This document shows, one piece after another, positions 19,738 to 39,343 of a stretch of DNA of 64,000 bases (position 1 is the stretch's first letter; each line of letters begins with the position of its first letter). The position numbers were made by a program, and so were the translations under genes. This DNA is from a virus: IMG/VR virus record IMGVR_UViG_3300030516_000004; one strand, given 5' to 3'. The notes beneath the pieces were generated by a model. That model searched no databases, was not told the DNA's origin, and saw nothing but the letters and a program-made list of their open reading frames with translations.

Positions 19738-20406
19738 ATGAAAAGTAAAACATTAGAACAGAAGGTAAAATATTTAAAACTTAGTGCAATTTTTGGTTTC
19801 TTTGTTTACTTATTTGTTGGAGCGTTAATTAAAAGTGCACTCTTCTCCTCAGCGCCTCAAGTTTCGGATTTTTATGAGCTACTTCGAGATGGCTTAACAA
19901 TTACTGCATACTACTTAGCACCCGCCGCAGCACTATTATTGTTTAGTGATTGGCGTTTAGAGCACTTGGAAAAGAGTAGAGAAGAGCAAGGTAAGCTAAT
20001 AAACGATCTAATTAAAAAAATTGATTCAGATTTGAGTGAGATAGAAGATGAAATTAAATATCAGGAAACCATAAGTAGTGATCAAAAAGCTCATATAGAT
20101 GATCTTTTTAAAGAACTTATGGCAAATTTAAGTAAACTTCAGAATGCACTTAATGAGTTTGATTTCGATGATATAAAAGCAACAAAATTTCAAGAAAAAG
20201 TTAAAGATATCCGGTTTTACCTTTTAGAAAACATGTTTCTTCTTGAAAGAATGTTTAGTGGTTTAATAAAAAAATCTGATCCTATTAAATATATAGGTGC
20301 TTATAAAGGCGATGACATTACTACCTTTAAAAATGCTCAAGCAGACTTATTCCAAGAGTTTGAAGGTAATTATTTAGAAAATTTTGGAAAAAACATAAGT
20401 TATTAG
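19738..20406 (+). CDS. AT-rich moron: two N-terminal TM helices plus coiled coil
   Basis: Inserted between head-closure and tail genes with own promoter. Confidence 0.8.
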   Translation: MKSKTLEQKVKYLKLSAIFGFFVYLFVGALIKSALFSSAPQVSDFYELLRDGLTITAYYLAPAAALLLFSDWRLEHLEKSREEQGKLINDLIKKIDSDLSEIEDEIKYQETISSDQKAHIDDLFKELMANLSKLQNALNEFDFDDIKATKFQEKVKDIRFYLLENMFLLERMFSGLIKKSDPIKYIGAYKGDDITTFKNAQADLFQEFEGNYLENFGKNISY

Positions 20407-23459: not shown

Positions 23460-23858
23460 ATGAAGAAGATTATTTTAATAATGTTGACCATAGTTGTAAC
23501 GGGCTGTGCAGCAACTGCTGATATGACAAACAATCAGTATATGGTAATAACCCCAACACCAACAGAGTTGAGCGGGTTTTGGACTGGTGTAAACGGTCCT
23601 TACACAGTTACATATGCTTTTAAAAAAGATGGTACTGGATTGATGTGTTCAAGCTGGGGAGGTAATGACTCTCTTGAAAAGCTAAAAATTAATGGCTCAG
23701 AAGTTATTCTTCAATCTGGTTTGAAACAAACAATCAAATCGAAGACTAATTCAAAGCTTGAGTTAAGAGCTAATTATTATGGTGGAGCAACCTATTCTTA
23801 TATTCCAGACCCATCTTTAAGTAATGCATCGCCATACTGCGAAAAAATCTTAAGATAA
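23460..23858 (+). CDS. Lipoprotein moron, candidate superinfection-exclusion factor
   Basis: Signal peptide with lipobox VTGC; own promoter and terminator. Confidence 0.8.
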   Translation: MKKIILIMLTIVVTGCAATADMTNNQYMVITPTPTELSGFWTGVNGPYTVTYAFKKDGTGLMCSSWGGNDSLEKLKINGSEVILQSGLKQTIKSKTNSKLELRANYYGGATYSYIPDPSLSNASPYCEKILR

Positions 23859-35004: not shown

Positions 35005-36957
35005 ATGAAATACAGAACAGAAATAGATGGGTTGCGAGCAATCGCAGTTTTATTAGTTATATTCAATCACTTAGGTATTACCTTTTTTAGTGGTGGATAT
35101 GTAGGCGTTGACGTTTTCTTTGTTATTTCTGGATTTTTAATTACTTCAATTATTAGTAAGGAAATAACTGAGAAAACATTTGCATTTAAAAACTTCTATA
35201 AAAAACGGATATTAAGATTAGCTCCTGCATATTTTCTAGTGATTTTATGCTGTTTCCTTTTCTCATATTTTTTATTAGCTCCAATGGAGTTAGTATCTTT
35301 TTATAAAAGCGTGATGTATTCGCTAGTTTTCGCATCTAACTTTTTTATGTGGAAAGAAGTTGGTGGCTATTTCTCTGCAAATGCGGAATACATTCCACTT
35401 CTGCATTTGTGGTCATTGGGTGTAGAAGAGCAGTTCTACATTATATGGCCAACAGTTTTGATGATCATGCTTGCATGGTTTAAACGTTGGACTGGTTTAT
35501 TGATTGCTTTAGGTGTAATCCTAGGTTGTGTTTTAGCACATCTACTCTCGATCAAAGCGCCAGCAATGTCTTACTTTTTATTGCCGGCTCGTGCATTTGA
35601 GTTGATGATTGGCGCTGCAATCGTATTTATTAAGCCCAACAACTTTAAGTCTAGTAATGCAAATCTCTTTGCTGCATTTGGCTTGATCATGATTGTTTTT
35701 TCTAGTTTCTATCTGACTTCTGAAAGCATTTTCCCAGGTCTTTATGCTTTACTTCCGTGTGTTGGTACAGCTCTTATTATCTACAGTTTAAAAGGCCATG
35801 ATGGGATTATTAAGAAATTCCTTTCACTAAATATTATGTCATTCTTCGGGAAAATTTCTTACCCGCTTTACTTGTGGCACTGGCCTCTGATCGTATTTTA
35901 TAAGATCAGATTTGGCGAGCTTTCTTATCTAAGCATGGCAGGTTTGATGATTGCCATGACTTTGCTGTCATATCTAACCTATGAGTACGTCGAAAGAAAG
36001 ATTCAAAACAAGTTTAAGGCTTCAAATCCTGCGCGCATTGTTTTGAAAGGTTATTTAATACCTGTATTGGCATTTGCTGCCTTTAGCGGCTTTGTTGTAT
36101 ATGAAGATGGGTTAAAGCAACGTTTTAACAGCAATGTGCCAGAAATAGAAAATAGTATTAATGCAGCTTCGCATAAGATACGTGGGAAGTGTTTATATGC
36201 GCCAGCAGGCGAGTTGCCGCCTAAAGATGCATGTTCCCTAGGTGTTGATAATGCAGAAACAGAAGTTCTGCTTGTAGGCGACTCTCATGCAAATCATTAC
36301 TCAAATATGATAAATGTGATGCTAAAAGATGCTCATAAGAGGGGTTATGAGATTGATCAAAACTCAACTTTCTTTATGCCAGATGTTGAGCGTTATGTCC
36401 TTAAAGACGGAACAAAGAAGTTAGCACCTGAATTTAAAACACGTAATGATTTAATCAAGCATCATCTGACTGAGCATAAGTACAAGTATGTTATTTTGGC
36501 TGGCTCTTATGCTGATAACTTTATTGTCAGTCATTTTGAAGATGGAACAGGCCGAAGTAGTGCTGATGTAATGGAATCTGGTTTAGATCGAGCTATAGAT
36601 CTTGTTGAGAATACTGGTGCCAAAGCATTAATTATCAAGGGTATGCCGAAAGTTCAAGAGCTTGATCAGAATTGCCCACTTCGTAAAGAAATGTTTGGTG
36701 ATATTGATTGCGGCTTTGATAGAAAGATTCACGATGAGCATTTTAGGGAATGGAATGAAATGCTAAATCGACTTAAAGCTAAGCACAAAAATCTTGAAGT
36801 GATAGATATTGAGCCTTATTTCTGTGACGCAGAAAAATGCTACCTAGATCGTAATGGAACGCCTCTTTACATCGACCAAAAGCACATCAATTATGTTGCA
36901 TCAGGTGAGATTGGGAATTGGTATATTAAGACAAACAGAAATCATTTTAAGGAGTAG
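35005..36957 (+). CDS. Acyltransferase-3 plus SGNH O-acetyltransferase (OafA-like)
   Basis: IDGLRAIAV, GVDVFFVISGFLIT, HLWSLGVEEQFY, GDSHA Ser, DQKH DxxH. Confidence 0.95.
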   Translation: MKYRTEIDGLRAIAVLLVIFNHLGITFFSGGYVGVDVFFVISGFLITSIISKEITEKTFAFKNFYKKRILRLAPAYFLVILCCFLFSYFLLAPMELVSFYKSVMYSLVFASNFFMWKEVGGYFSANAEYIPLLHLWSLGVEEQFYIIWPTVLMIMLAWFKRWTGLLIALGVILGCVLAHLLSIKAPAMSYFLLPARAFELMIGAAIVFIKPNNFKSSNANLFAAFGLIMIVFSSFYLTSESIFPGLYALLPCVGTALIIYSLKGHDGIIKKFLSLNIMSFFGKISYPLYLWHWPLIVFYKIRFGELSYLSMAGLMIAMTLLSYLTYEYVERKIQNKFKASNPARIVLKGYLIPVLAFAAFSGFVVYEDGLKQRFNSNVPEIENSINAASHKIRGKCLYAPAGELPPKDACSLGVDNAETEVLLVGDSHANHYSNMINVMLKDAHKRGYEIDQNSTFFMPDVERYVLKDGTKKLAPEFKTRNDLIKHHLTEHKYKYVILAGSYADNFIVSHFEDGTGRSSADVMESGLDRAIDLVENTGAKALIIKGMPKVQELDQNCPLRKEMFGDIDCGFDRKIHDEHFREWNEMLNRLKAKHKNLEVIDIEPYFCDAEKCYLDRNGTPLYIDQKHINYVASGEIGNWYIKTNRNHFKE

Positions 36958-36959
36958 TA

Positions 36960-37139
36960 ATGCAACAGACTTTGCTAACTTTATTCGTGGTTCTACTAAT
37001 TCTCATTGCTGTAATGTGTTTAGGGATAGGTATTTACCAATTAGATTATTTTTTCATATTTATAGGGATATGCTTAATTGCAGCGAGCTACCTATTAAAA
37101 CGTGAATTTAAGCTCTATTTTTTCTTTTGGAAGGAATAA
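36960..37139 (+). CDS. 59-aa two-TM membrane peptide, co-transcribed with the acetyltransferase
   Basis: Hand-translated MQQTLLTLFVVLLILIAVMCLGIGIYQLDYFFIFIGICLIAASYLLKREFKLYFFFWKE; AAGGAG 5 nt before ATG; ends before the terminator. Confidence 0.75.
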   Translation: MQQTLLTLFVVLLILIAVMCLGIGIYQLDYFFIFIGICLIAASYLLKREFKLYFFFWKE

Positions 37140-37154
37140 AGCCAAAACCATACA

Positions 37155-37178
37155 GGCCCCTCTACAGGGGCTTTTTTA
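37155..37178 (+). terminator. Terminator closing the acetyltransferase cassette
   Basis: GGCCCCT-ctac-AGGGGCT-T run. Confidence 0.8.
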
Positions 37179-37201
37179 TTGCCGAAATTAGGGGGAACCT
37201 C

Positions 37202-37480
37202 ATGCAAGAGCATGAAAAAACACTTATGACATTGTTAATTGTTGGAGGGCTTATTGGTATGGGTCGTCTATTAGTTTCAAATGAGCCTCTGTCATGGCGC
37301 ATGATCATTGGTCGAACGATTTTAGGCTCTGCCACATCAACAGTTGCAGGCTTAATTCTAATTCAATTCCCTGATATTTCACCGGTTGCCTTAGTCGGTA
37401 TTGCATGTGCTTTAGGTATTTTAGGAAGTACTTACATTGAGGAATACCTTAAAAAGAATATTAATAAGTGGGGTAAGTGA
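37202..37480 (+). CDS. Holin
   Basis: Three hydrophobic segments, basic C-terminus, overlaps the endolysin start; ATG 37202 with ggggg RBS. Confidence 0.85.
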   Translation: MQEHEKTLMTLLIVGGLIGMGRLLVSNEPLSWRMIIGRTILGSATSTVAGLILIQFPDISPVALVGIACALGILGSTYIEEYLKKNINKWGK

Positions 37481-37923
37481 TGAAGACAAGTAATATGGGA
37501 TTAAACCTCATCAAAGGCTTTGAGGGTAAGCGCCTTTCCGCATACGATGATGGTGTGGGCATTTGGACTATTGGTTTTGGCACCATTAAATATCCAAATG
37601 GTATCCGAGTTAAAAAAGGTGATACTTGCACTGAACAACAAGCAGAAAATTATCTAAGAAATGACTTAGCCAAGTTTGAAACAGCTATCAATAAACTTGT
37701 TAAAGTCCCACTTGCTCAGAATCAATTTGATGCTCTAGCGTCTTTTACATATAACCTTGGTGAAACTAATTTAGCTAATTCAACCTTATTGAGGAAACTT
37801 AATAAAGGTGACTATCAAGGCGCTGCTGACCAATTCCTTGTGTGGAATAAGGCGGGCAGCAAAGTTATGAAAGGTCTAGTTCGTCGCCGAGAAGCAGAAC
37901 GTGCACTCTTTTTAAAGAAGTAA
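37477..37923 (+). CDS. Endolysin, GH24 lysozyme
   Basis: E-x8-D-x5-T triad (EGKRLSAYDDGVGIWTIG), GLVRRREAE. Confidence 0.95.
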   Translation: MMKTSNMGLNLIKGFEGKRLSAYDDGVGIWTIGFGTIKYPNGIRVKKGDTCTEQQAENYLRNDLAKFETAINKLVKVPLAQNQFDALASFTYNLGETNLANSTLLRKLNKGDYQGAADQFLVWNKAGSKVMKGLVRRREAERALFLKK

Positions 37924-37928
37924 CTTAT

Positions 37929-38048
37929 ATGTGTAAGCGTACTAAAGTTGCATCGATCATCACATTGCTGTGCTTAATCTTCTCAGGTTGCACAGCTCAC
38001 ACTATTAGTACCTCTGTAAATGTTGGGATATGCGTAAAGGCTTTATAG
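37929..38048 (+). CDS. 39-aa lipoprotein in the spanin position
   Basis: MCKRTKVASIITLLCLIFSGCTAHTISTSVNVGICVKAL; FSGC lipobox. Confidence 0.75.
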   Translation: MCKRTKVASIITLLCLIFSGCTAHTISTSVNVGICVKAL

Positions 38049-38050
38049 GC

Positions 38051-39343
38051 TTATTTATTAATTTTGGGCAAGCCTTCCCAGCTAAAATAATTCTGCGTTA
38101 GTTTGTCTCGAGTCATTGCCCAACCTCTATTGGGCAGCCTACAACTACCTACCGCAATTTTGTGTTTCCCAAACTTCTCGACTACTTGTTCTATGGTAGT
38201 CATTAAATTCTCATCCTTTTCGACCTTATTCCAGTCTGTTAGCAGATCGTAGTTAAAGGTATCTTTAGGCTCCAAGCCTGTCAAAATCACCCCGCATTTT
38301 TTATATTCAATTCCTCTCGCATATAGATGTCTCATTAAAAAAGTGGCTATCTGCACCATCTTCAAAACATTGTCAGTTGGCACACTAACCGGAAGAGACT
38401 GTGATCTATTAAAGAAAGGCCTGTGCTTGTCGAATGGATTTGATTGGGCAAAAACGATAATACAGCCGCACAGCAATCTATCTTTTCTTAACCGGACCAC
38501 GGCATTTTGCATGTAGAGTGAAACAGCTTCTTGTAGGTCGATGAGCTCAGTAACTTTCTGACCGAATGATTTAGAGGAAATGATCTGCTTTTTGCTTGGC
38601 GGTGTATGTTCAATCTCAATGCATGAAATGCCTTGCAGTTCGTAGACTGTACGGGCCATCACAATAGAAAAGTGCTTCTGCATTTCTCTAGGCTCAGTGC
38701 AAGCTAGATCTAGTACAGTATGAATGCCCATGCCATTTAACTTTTTAGTATGCTGCCTTCCAACACCCCAAACCTCTGATACATCTATAGAGGATAGATA
38801 GGACTCTTTATTACAAGGATCCATAGCAACTAAATTACATACACCATCAAATGCTTTATTCTTCTTTGCAATGTGGTTTGCTATTTTTGCCTCAGTCTTT
38901 GATCTGCCTATTCCAATGCAAACTGGAAGGCCAATCCATTGCCATATACGGGCCTTCATATGTTGGCAGTAAGCGGTTAGATCATAATTATTAAAATAGG
39001 CTGTTAGATCTAGAAAGCATTCATCAATAGAGTAGACCTCTTGCTCGCCCTCGGCTACATAGTGCCTTAGAATATTCATAAATCTGCGGCTCATCTCAGC
39101 ATAGACACTATAGTTGCTCGAGAGTACTACTACATTATGTCTTTCTACAATGTCGCGAATCTGAAAGAGGGGAACACCCATCTTGATGCCAAGATCTTTA
39201 GCTTCTTGTGATCTGGCAACTGCACAGCCGTCGTTATTGCTGAGGACAATGACGGGCCGGTTGTTCAGTTCAGGCTGAAAGAATCTCTCACAACTGACAT
39301 AACAGTTGTTGACATCCACTAATGCAAAAATTCGCTCTCTCAT
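38051..39343 (-). CDS. umuC: Y-family translesion polymerase, Pol V UmuC-like
   Basis: ALVDVNNCYVSCE, VVLSNNDGC, YSIDECFLD, UmuC-type C-terminus. Confidence 0.95.
   Translation of the reverse strand: MRERIFALVDVNNCYVSCERFFQPELNNRPVIVLSNNDGCAVARSQEAKDLGIKMGVPLFQIRDIVERHNVVVLSSNYSVYAEMSRRFMNILRHYVAEGEQEVYSIDECFLDLTAYFNNYDLTAYCQHMKARIWQWIGLPVCIGIGRSKTEAKIANHIAKKNKAFDGVCNLVAMDPCNKESYLSSIDVSEVWGVGRQHTKKLNGMGIHTVLDLACTEPREMQKHFSIVMARTVYELQGISCIEIEHTPPSKKQIISSKSFGQKVTELIDLQEAVSLYMQNAVVRLRKDRLLCGCIIVFAQSNPFDKHRPFFNRSQSLPVSVPTDNVLKMVQIATFLMRHLYARGIEYKKCGVILTGLEPKDTFNYDLLTDWNKVEKDENLMTTIEQVVEKFGKHKIAVGSCRLPNRGWAMTRDKLTQNYFSWEGLPKINK

Follow-up and report, generated by a model that had tools for sequence, protein, structure and literature searches.

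How Acinetobacter phages breach the outer membrane of their host has been left open by three papers (PMC6139136, PMC8878043, PMC10888812). In the catalogue of Kongari et al., six of these phages, including YMC-13-01-C62, are spanin-less, and an orphan lipoprotein is mentioned for 31 genomes (PMC6139136). Spanins were also absent from the 134 Acinetobacter phages studied by Oliveira et al., who suggested that another mechanism is at work (PMC8878043). Spanins were likewise not predicted in Obolenskvirus by Evseev et al. (PMC10888812), and the announcement of phage Piluca states that ‘no spanins were identified’ (PMC9022569). Here we describe a gene that is present in many such phages, including YMC-13-01-C62, and that encodes a lipoprotein precursor of only 39 residues. 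It was found in 64,000 nucleotides (nt) of viral DNA, IMG/VR record IMGVR_UViG_3300030516_000004, which are called the window below, as an open reading frame (ORF) placed directly behind the endolysin gene. Its predicted mature product is called the lipopeptide.

Several small envelope-active proteins form the background for this gene. The entericidins A and B of enterobacteria are made as precursors of about 40–48 amino acids (aa), with mature forms of about 21–27 aa, and one of them is bacteriolytic; they are chromosomally encoded, regulated in stationary phase and predicted to form amphipathic helices. The colicin lysis proteins, or bacteriocin release proteins (BRP), have a 47-aa precursor and a 28-aa mature form, are sorted to the outer membrane and, without a partner, make the envelope permeable by activating phospholipase A (PMC2896534). 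Disruptin gp28 of coliphage phiKT is a single small peptide that replaces spanins in outer-membrane disruption (bioRxiv 10.1101/515445). The spanins themselves come either as pairs of an i-spanin and a lipoprotein o-spanin, such as Rz and Rz1 of lambda, or as one-gene u-spanins such as T1 gp11.

The lipopeptide gene and its cassette

An earlier note on the window, made from its letters alone, had described a 39-aa ORF after holin and endolysin genes, with a signal peptide, a lipobox and a processed part of 19 residues with Thr at position +2. The ORF lies at 37929-38048 on the plus strand, and its translation bears out each of these properties. The slash in peptide and DNA strings below marks a cleavage site or a junction.

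37154..37183, plus strand: intrinsic-terminator-like hairpin and T-run (8-bp stem with 5 GC pairs, T-tail)
37202..37480, plus strand: holin, 92 aa (PF04550 Phage_holin_3_2, E 1.6e-28; phrog_175 holin, E 8.7e-35)
37477..37923, plus strand: GH24 lysozyme endolysin, 148 aa (PF00959 Phage_lysozyme, E 1.4e-49)
37914..37920, plus strand: purine-rich AAAGAAG, weakly Shine-Dalgarno-like, 8 nt before the ATG, of putative function
37929-38048, plus strand: lipoprotein precursor ORF, ATG start, 39 codons, encoding MCKRTKVASIITLLCLIFSGCTAHTISTSVNVGICVKAL, that is MCKRTKVASIITLLCLIFSG/CTAHTISTSVNVGICVKAL
37929..37988, plus strand: signal peptide, residues 1-20, MCKRTKVASIITLLCLIFSG, with lipobox F-S-G before Cys21 (IFSG/C)
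37989..38045, plus strand: mature 19-residue lipopeptide CTAHTISTSVNVGICVKAL, Thr at +2
38046..38048, plus strand: stop codon TAG, exactly where DNA homology with phages TRS1, TCUAN1 and Piluca ends

The endolysin start overlaps the holin stop, and the lipopeptide ATG comes 5 nt past the endolysin stop (37921-37923). Translational coupling of the lipopeptide to the endolysin is likely, because this stop lies between the lipopeptide ATG and AAAGAAG, a motif that is invariant in the DNA alignment of four phages. In the window no sigma-70-like promoter is seen between the terminator at 37154..37183 and the ORF, which fits co-transcription of the lipopeptide with the lysis genes.

The signal peptide has a basic n-region (K3, R4, K6) and a hydrophobic core of 12 residues, and the predicted product combines the lipoprotein signal, the lipobox and the +2 sorting residue of o-spanins (F-S-G/C, Thr+2). 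The presumed lipid-modified Cys21 is encoded at 37989-37991 and a second, invariant cysteine, Cys35, at 38031-38033. With one Lys, one His and a free C-terminus the mature peptide is about neutral; it is rich in beta-branched residues and ends in a hydrophobic tail of roughly ten. AlphaFold2 gave the precursor a mean predicted local distance difference test (pLDDT) score of 58.7, with a helical signal peptide and an unreliable remainder, and a multimer model of four mature copies (alignment A3) scored 0.02 with a partner pLDDT below 50, which tells neither for nor against such an assembly. The oligomerising beta-strand lipopeptide proposed in the earlier note gained no support.

Comparison with described systems

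Like the o-spanins of lambda (Rz1) and of two Acinetobacter prophage loci (Rz1 of L178 and L179), the lipopeptide is a predicted outer-membrane lipoprotein with Thr at +2, encoded at the end of the cassette and in the same slot after homologous endolysins. Its invariant Cys35 would correspond to the periplasmic cysteine that o-spanins offer for an intermolecular disulfide, and aligns with Cys29 of Rz1. It differs from them in having no partner i-spanin gene, be it embedded, overlapping or adjacent, in the window genome. It is also much shorter: mature lambda Rz1 has 40 residues, the lipopeptide 19, and it stops where the proline-rich, Rz-binding part of Rz1 begins.

In these respects the earlier note has held up. 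It had seen no i-/o-spanin pair, and a six-frame scan of the genome finds no type-II membrane protein with a periplasmic domain near the cassette. It had placed the gene in the spanin slot, and homologous GH24 endolysins elsewhere in Acinetobacter prophages do precede Rz/Rz1. It had judged the mature part too short to cross the periplasm, and 19 residues compare with a total of 62 in the shortest catalogued two-component spanin (PMC6139136). The 19-21 aa seen in most members of the family likewise lie well below these 62 combined periplasmic residues.

A weak likeness to the membrane-proximal stub of Rz1 o-spanins, which the earlier note did not mention, is suggestive only and not significant by itself, as it was seen post hoc and between short sequences. 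Aligned by hhalign, the family profile reached a probability of 60% against Acinetobacter Rz1 (mature CATHSNLSNVQMCPQLP…) and of 40% against lambda Rz1, where the lipid Cys, Thr+2 and Cys35-Val-Lys were matched to Rz1 with its Cys29-Val-Lys. When the mature N-termini were compared without gaps and tested against shuffles, p was about 0.007-0.01 for the Rz1 type, and the other o-spanin type gave no signal. The PHROG families of Rz-like spanins came up only at E 0.3.

The colicin lysis proteins (PF02402 Lysis_col) are likewise very small stand-alone lipoproteins. The lipopeptide differs from them in lacking a Lysis_col Pfam match, in being shorter, in its sequence and in its conserved second cysteine; they belong to SOS-controlled colicin operons, whereas the lipopeptide belongs to phages and follows an endolysin. 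Language-model neighbours of the lipopeptide include a cluster of the colicin E1 lysis protein with a score of 0.85, to be taken as a lead only. The entericidins (PF08085) give no Pfam match to it either. Disruptin gp28 is cationic, resembles an antimicrobial peptide and has no lipid anchor, whereas the lipopeptide has a lipoprotein signal and is about neutral. The u-spanin T1 gp11 shares with it the single gene, the N-terminal lipoprotein signal and the place in a lysis cassette, but has a periplasm-spanning body and a C-terminal transmembrane (TM) domain, where the lipopeptide has only 19 residues and no such domain.

A family restricted to Acinetobacter phages and prophages

By tblastn the ORF is found in 83 phage records, at least 79 of them of Acinetobacter phages. 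Most annotations miss it: of 60 records listed, two are wholly unannotated, and a coding sequence is marked at the ORF in only 7 of the remaining 58. The TRS1 authors put a ‘terminator’ on it, and in Piluca only the ribosome-binding site of the next gene is marked there. A degenerate pattern of the mature core detects 45 loci in species-representative genomes, 43 of them in Acinetobacter (about 20 species), and occurs in at least 120 IMG/VR contigs. The two other loci (L017, in a contig of a Clostridium sp. metagenome-assembled genome, and L026, in a Leifsonia sp. contig) are near-identical to an Acinetobacter endolysin with its lipopeptide and probably reflect contamination in assembly or binning, not a wider host range. 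A pattern-free profile (A3) has matches in 46 of 151 Acinetobacter species genomes, frequently more than one per genome, and a profile search of 1.84 billion representative proteins returned just 21 clusters, all of the lipopeptide family. The family is restricted to Acinetobacter phages and prophages.

Curated models do not cover it. Searches of Pfam, PHROGs and NCBIfam gave only chance-level matches to the signal peptide, Pfam up to an E of 1 gave a single chance match, and a PDB profile search with the family gave none. A word-indexed protein search with one extra upstream residue yielded five small matches, such ORFs being rarely called. We have not found the family described in the open literature. 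A reading of the ORF as the truncated remnant of a longer protein was rejected: no longer homologues exist, and the long matches (P0017-P0021) are AT-rich read-through after loss of the stop codon.

One carrier stands apart by its host. Phage Piluca (L003/L007), isolated on Alcaligenes faecalis, has an Acinetobacter-type cassette end with DNA almost identical to that of TRS1, which means either a host range that crosses classes or a propagation host that deserves a second look.

The mature part has the conserved core C-T-A-H-[TS]-I…V.V.[IV]-C-V. The alignment columns G20, C21, T22, A23, H24, I26, V32, C35 and V36 are invariant; at ten positions of the core, part of this invariance comes from the search pattern itself. 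Matches of the pattern-free hidden Markov model show few core substitutions (e.g., CAANTIN…, CNAHNIN…). At the codon level, Thr2, Ala3 and Val12 are each encoded by all four possible codons across the family, and Ile6 by all three (mature numbering). The proportion of differing silent sites (pS) is 0.63-0.76, that is, saturated, and that of differing replacement sites (pN) is 0.36 in the eight codons that the pattern leaves free; in the signal peptide pN is 0.44 against a pS of 0.64. Saturated silent sites with retained amino acids speak for selection at the protein level. The signal peptides are unrelated in sequence, always hydrophobic and always end in G-C. Among 122 IMG/VR copies the mature length is 19 (91 copies), 20 (12), 21 (16), 23 (2) or 16 (1), so that 119 of 122 fall within 19-21 aa, and there are no long forms. 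Conservation over hundreds of independent loci with saturated silent sites goes far beyond chance, and we regard the ORF with high confidence as a real lipoprotein gene.

Two C-terminal types occur, …VNVGICVKAL and …VHVTVCVQCVN, the latter carried by virulent phages of Obolenskvirus, for instance Cato and YMC-13-01-C62. A zinc site made of His4, His11, Cys15 and Cys18 was considered and set aside, since it is confined to the …VCVQCVN subtype and absent from the peptide of the window. In a subfamily (L018, L028, L033, L051, L042, L043) a CAC codon for His replaces the ATG start (…YHCRRS… vs …YMCKRT…), and these members have only a GTG start, giving a signal peptide without a basic residue, or no canonical start.

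Genomic context of the family

A same-strand ORF ends within 200 nt upstream of the gene at 154 of 167 sites, and at about 90% of the 167 a peptidoglycan hydrolase gene comes immediately before it. As a rule the lipopeptide gene closes the lysis cassette, starting a few bases from the endolysin stop or overlapping it. Clustering of the 134 distinct upstream proteins gave the following groups.

GH108+PG_binding_3 together with Amidase_3: 55 members
GH24: 51 members
GH19: 12 members
DUF6527: 5 members
unknown: 5 members
PF11860 muramidase: 2 members
singletons: 4

At least five unrelated families of peptidoglycan hydrolases thus have the lipopeptide gene downstream, as expected of a component of the lysis cassette and not of a passenger of one endolysin. 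Its carriers are equally diverse and include temperate siphoviruses (the phage of the window and TRS1, a viable prophage; PMC5064099), the epsilon15-like podovirus Piluca and virulent myoviruses of the genus Obolenskvirus. At a few sites the gene lies between genes of unknown function.

In P2-like Acinetobacter prophages no lysA, lysB or lysC is found between the endolysin and gpR, and the lipopeptide gene sits at the end of the late region after ogr. One such locus (L185 208-2175) has two holins and an endolysin of PG_binding_1 and muramidase domains; the endolysin stop overlaps the start of gpR, and the lysA/lysB/lysC block of P2 is absent. In another subset (L001 3063-3260 and others) an ORF for a soluble protein of 65-72 aa, similar to TRS1_33, starts at the lipopeptide stop with a TGATG overlap; in one metagenomic protein, P0003, the first 29 residues of the lipopeptide are naturally fused in frame to such a TRS1_33-like ORF.

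Spanins in Acinetobacter prophages

Canonical spanins do exist in Acinetobacter prophages, and the lack of spanins published for Acinetobacter phages is therefore not true of every prophage. The Rz model PF03245 matches two of the 151 Acinetobacter genomes, and both loci, L178 (1477-2788) and L179 (1381-3201), read holin-endolysin-Rz with an embedded Rz1; the endolysin that precedes Rz/Rz1 in L179 is 52% identical to that of the window. A second type, an overlapped i/o pair missed by PF03245, is present in L180, L186, L190 and L192, with a 124-aa i-spanin and a 96-aa o-spanin in L180 (7917-9596).

None of these six spanin cassettes has an intact lipopeptide gene. Four of them retain only a relic, the mature-coding part without its signal peptide, joined at GGC/TGCACAGC. 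This mutual exclusivity of spanins and intact lipopeptide favours functional equivalence of the two, in a sample that is small and not phylogenetically independent, four of the six cassettes being one prophage lineage.

A different spanin candidate has been proposed for Obolenskvirus, the TM protein P0008 (PMC10888812). We rejected it, because it has two to three TM segments, a holin-like topology and no periplasmic domain; relatives of P0008 co-occur with true spanins.

Proposed role of the lipopeptide

Judged from sequence and gene order, a late envelope or lysis role is the best reading of the lipopeptide, which would be a lysis-cassette lipoprotein, either o-spanin-like or BRP-like, and a new class of outer-membrane disruptor if it works alone. 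That it serves outer-membrane disruption in some form, an action through an unrecognised partner included, appears probable, roughly two chances in three. That it acts on the outer membrane in lysis by itself is plausible, with the chances about evenly balanced. A still narrower version is a tentative proposal to which we give somewhat less than an even chance. In it the 19-residue lipopeptide would be triacylated, perhaps dimerised by a disulfide, derived from the stub of an Rz1-type o-spanin, and able to open the outer membrane from the inner leaflet with no partner that spans the periplasm.

In outline, the candidate lipopeptide would be made late, together with the endolysin, as its position and the lack of a promoter of its own suggest. 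Established lipoprotein biology predicts processing by Lgt, Lsp and Lnt and, given a residue other than Asp at +2, sorting to the outer membrane by the Lol system, a rule of general lipoprotein biology that may not be that of Acinetobacter. Cys35 might then pair to give a disulfide-linked dimer, as Rz1 does via Cys29, and the hydrophobic C-terminal decapeptide (V.V.IC V.AL) might insert into the membrane; both steps are speculative. The outer membrane would be weakened or permeabilised, directly or via phospholipase A, and the cell would burst once the endolysin has removed the wall. The lipopeptide alone, from the outer-membrane side, would thus do the job of i-/o-spanin pairs, in a way that resembles the colicin lysis lipoproteins more than a fusion machine spanning the periplasm. 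Its ancestor may have been the membrane-proximal stub of an Rz1-type o-spanin.

Several observations weigh against this proposal, in addition to the partly imposed invariance and the small set of spanin cassettes mentioned above. The mature peptide is near neutral and not obviously membrane-lytic. In P2-like Acinetobacter prophages the divergent members follow gpD or ogr and not an endolysin, and one locus (L052) has neighbours that look chromosomal rather than phage-derived. The end of the late operon beside the attachment site (att) is a place where cargo collects, and in the window the cassette is flanked by an acyltransferase gene and a umuC-like gene. Moreover, five related cassettes that carry the relic (L183, L187, L188, L189, L191) lack both spanins and an intact copy, which makes it doubtful that the lipopeptide is essential. 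Friunaviruses such as Petty lack lipoproteins altogether (PMC6139136). Together with the five cassettes they raise the possibility that a dedicated outer-membrane factor is dispensable and that Acinetobacter phages may manage without one.

Alternative explanations

The lipopeptide could be the outer-membrane half of a two-component device, a minimal o-spanin whose partner is an unrecognised periplasm-crossing protein of host or phage. This would account for the Rz1-like stretch from the anchor to Cys-Val-Lys and for the invariant periplasmic cysteine, a near-universal feature of spanins according to Kongari et al. (PMC6139136), and topologies other than the usual one could act as i-spanins (PMC6139136). 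However, the cassettes share no common membrane protein, and their holins and endolysins belong to different families; P0008 of Obolenskvirus offers no periplasmic domain and has relatives beside true spanins; and 19 residues reach at most about 6.5 nm. We consider a hidden partner unlikely.

Just as unlikely, in our estimate, is a cargo (moron-type) lipopeptide of the envelope that is unrelated to lysis and serves, e.g., superinfection exclusion or modification of the host surface. Arguing for it are the location on the att/int side, where umuC(D), acyltransferase genes and small ORFs come and go, the copies after ogr in P2-like prophages, the chromosomal look of L052 and the frequent presence of several copies per genome. 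Yet the gene lacks its own promoter and lies against the endolysin stop or across it, the strictly virulent phages of Obolenskvirus have it too, and it travels with five unrelated endolysin families and not with a receptor-binding module. Late expression would be mistimed for exclusion, and one near-invariant peptide would hardly mask many different receptors.

A regulator or helper of lysis, which might time the action of holin or endolysin from the periplasm or loosen the tethers between outer membrane and wall, would share the linkage to the lysis cassette. The small size and the single conserved His and Cys would suit binding better than membrane damage, and cassettes without the lipopeptide exist. 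But the unrelated holins and endolysins found alongside make a specific protein target within the cassette improbable, and the predicted outer-membrane anchor with Thr+2 would hold the peptide far from the holin; we give this reading a rather low probability.

That there is no functional protein here at all, the ORF being a decaying o-spanin remnant or an open DNA or RNA element (hairpin, terminator, recombination hotspot), is very improbable, for what could be cited in its favour (the ‘terminator’ annotated inside the TRS1 ORF, a hairpin over the lipobox codons in about half of the family, the persistence of relics without signal peptide with junctions at GGC/TGCACAGC, and a terminator-like stem that the last codons often form with downstream sequence) is met by silent sites that are saturated while amino acids are kept, by the absence of the hairpin from many members that keep the peptide (e.g., those of Obolenskvirus), by a hairpin with no T-run after it and a fold no more stable than shuffles, and by unrelated signal peptides that all keep lipoprotein features above a stop of fixed position.

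Recombination at the lipobox

One further feature of the window lies over the lipobox codons.

37967..37996, plus strand: inverted repeat GCTGTGC…GCACAGC, covering the signal-peptide Cys15 codon and the Cys21-Thr-Ala codons

The repeat occurs in about 28 of 50 unique family sequences, is absent from Obolenskvirus and others, and coincides with the recombination junctions GGC/TGCACAGC in relatives. An RNA element in this region was rejected, since folding is no better than that of shuffles (z -0.61) and the hairpin is not followed by a T-run. The conserved lipobox-coding DNA seems to be a recombination hotspot for the exchange of cargo and cassettes.

In at least nine Acinetobacter species genomes (L180 5650-8420; L183, L186-L192) umuDC lies between the lysis genes and a mature-only copy of the lipopeptide, always with the junction …LVKTLSQS/CTAH (DNA GAGC/TGCACAGC). 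The window contrasts with these loci in having a lone umuC just after an intact lipopeptide gene. On the minus strand of L093 two matches lie 83 nt apart, an intact gene and a mature-only copy at GGC/TGCACAGC, separated by the hairpin GCCCTC-TAAGT-GAGGGC. In L192 the o-spanin ends in …IVKAL and a stop, followed by the same hairpin (GCCCTC-TAAGT-GAGGGC) and then the relic. This ‘KAL-stop-hairpin’ end is common to lipopeptide and o-spanin genes.

The window genome and the neighbours of the cassette

The 64,000-nt window is a phage genome of 43,325 bp written 1.48 times: positions 43326-64000 repeat positions 1-20675, an overlap of 20,675 bases with 0 mismatches. The phage is a temperate one of the Acinetobacter type. 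A full-length match to its genome was not found in the phage collection; its nearest relative across the lysis and integrase region is TRS1 (88%). Features outside the lysis genes that bear on the cassette, or that came up as spanin candidates, are these.

35005-36957, plus strand: AT3-SGNH acyltransferase, 650 aa
36960-37139, plus strand: 59-aa two-TM ORF, upstream of the terminator and grouped with the acyltransferase
38051..39343, minus strand: convergent umuC-like gene for a Y-family polymerase (PF00817/PF11799)
23460-23858, plus strand: 132-aa lipoprotein, lipobox VTG/C (phrog_4487), between the tail assembly chaperone and the tape-measure gene
19738-20406, plus strand: 222-aa protein (phrog_7125), among head-tail connector genes

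On the left, the terminator at 37154..37183 ends the unit of acyltransferase and 59-aa ORF and forms the edge of the lysis cassette. This unit (35005-37183, plus strand), with its own terminator, sits between the tail genes and the lysis cassette and looks like a module for conversion by O-acetylation of surface polysaccharide. On the right, the umuC-like gene ends 2 bases past the lipopeptide stop and is followed by the integrase gene. It is cargo inserted directly behind that stop; at its position TRS1 has a different gene and attP.

No other gene of the window genome qualified as a spanin. The only other lipoprotein in the six-frame scan, at 23460-23858 on the plus strand, is globular, belongs to the tail module (phrog_4487) and is probably cargo. 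The sole membrane protein of i-spanin size, the 222-aa protein at 19738-20406, was rejected for its two N-terminal hydrophobic segments and its location among the head-tail genes; its acidic helical C-terminal domain is probably cytoplasmic, and it could be cargo of an exclusion or abortive-infection type. The 59-aa two-TM ORF was rejected as well, as it lies upstream of the terminator in one unit with the acyltransferase.

Implications

If the lipopeptide does act alone on the outer membrane, it would be a fourth kind of phage device for breaching that membrane, with the part of an Rz1-type o-spanin next to the anchor as its possible origin, and would explain how many ‘spanin-less’ Acinetobacter phages complete lysis. 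As the missing factor, it would stand beside the spanin and disruptin routes as a minimal mechanism based on a lipopeptide, would allow better annotation of therapeutic A. baumannii phages, and would provide a very small, genus-conserved agent that acts on the Acinetobacter outer membrane from within. Should it turn out not to be a lysis factor, its strict conservation would still mark an envelope function in the phages of a priority pathogen.

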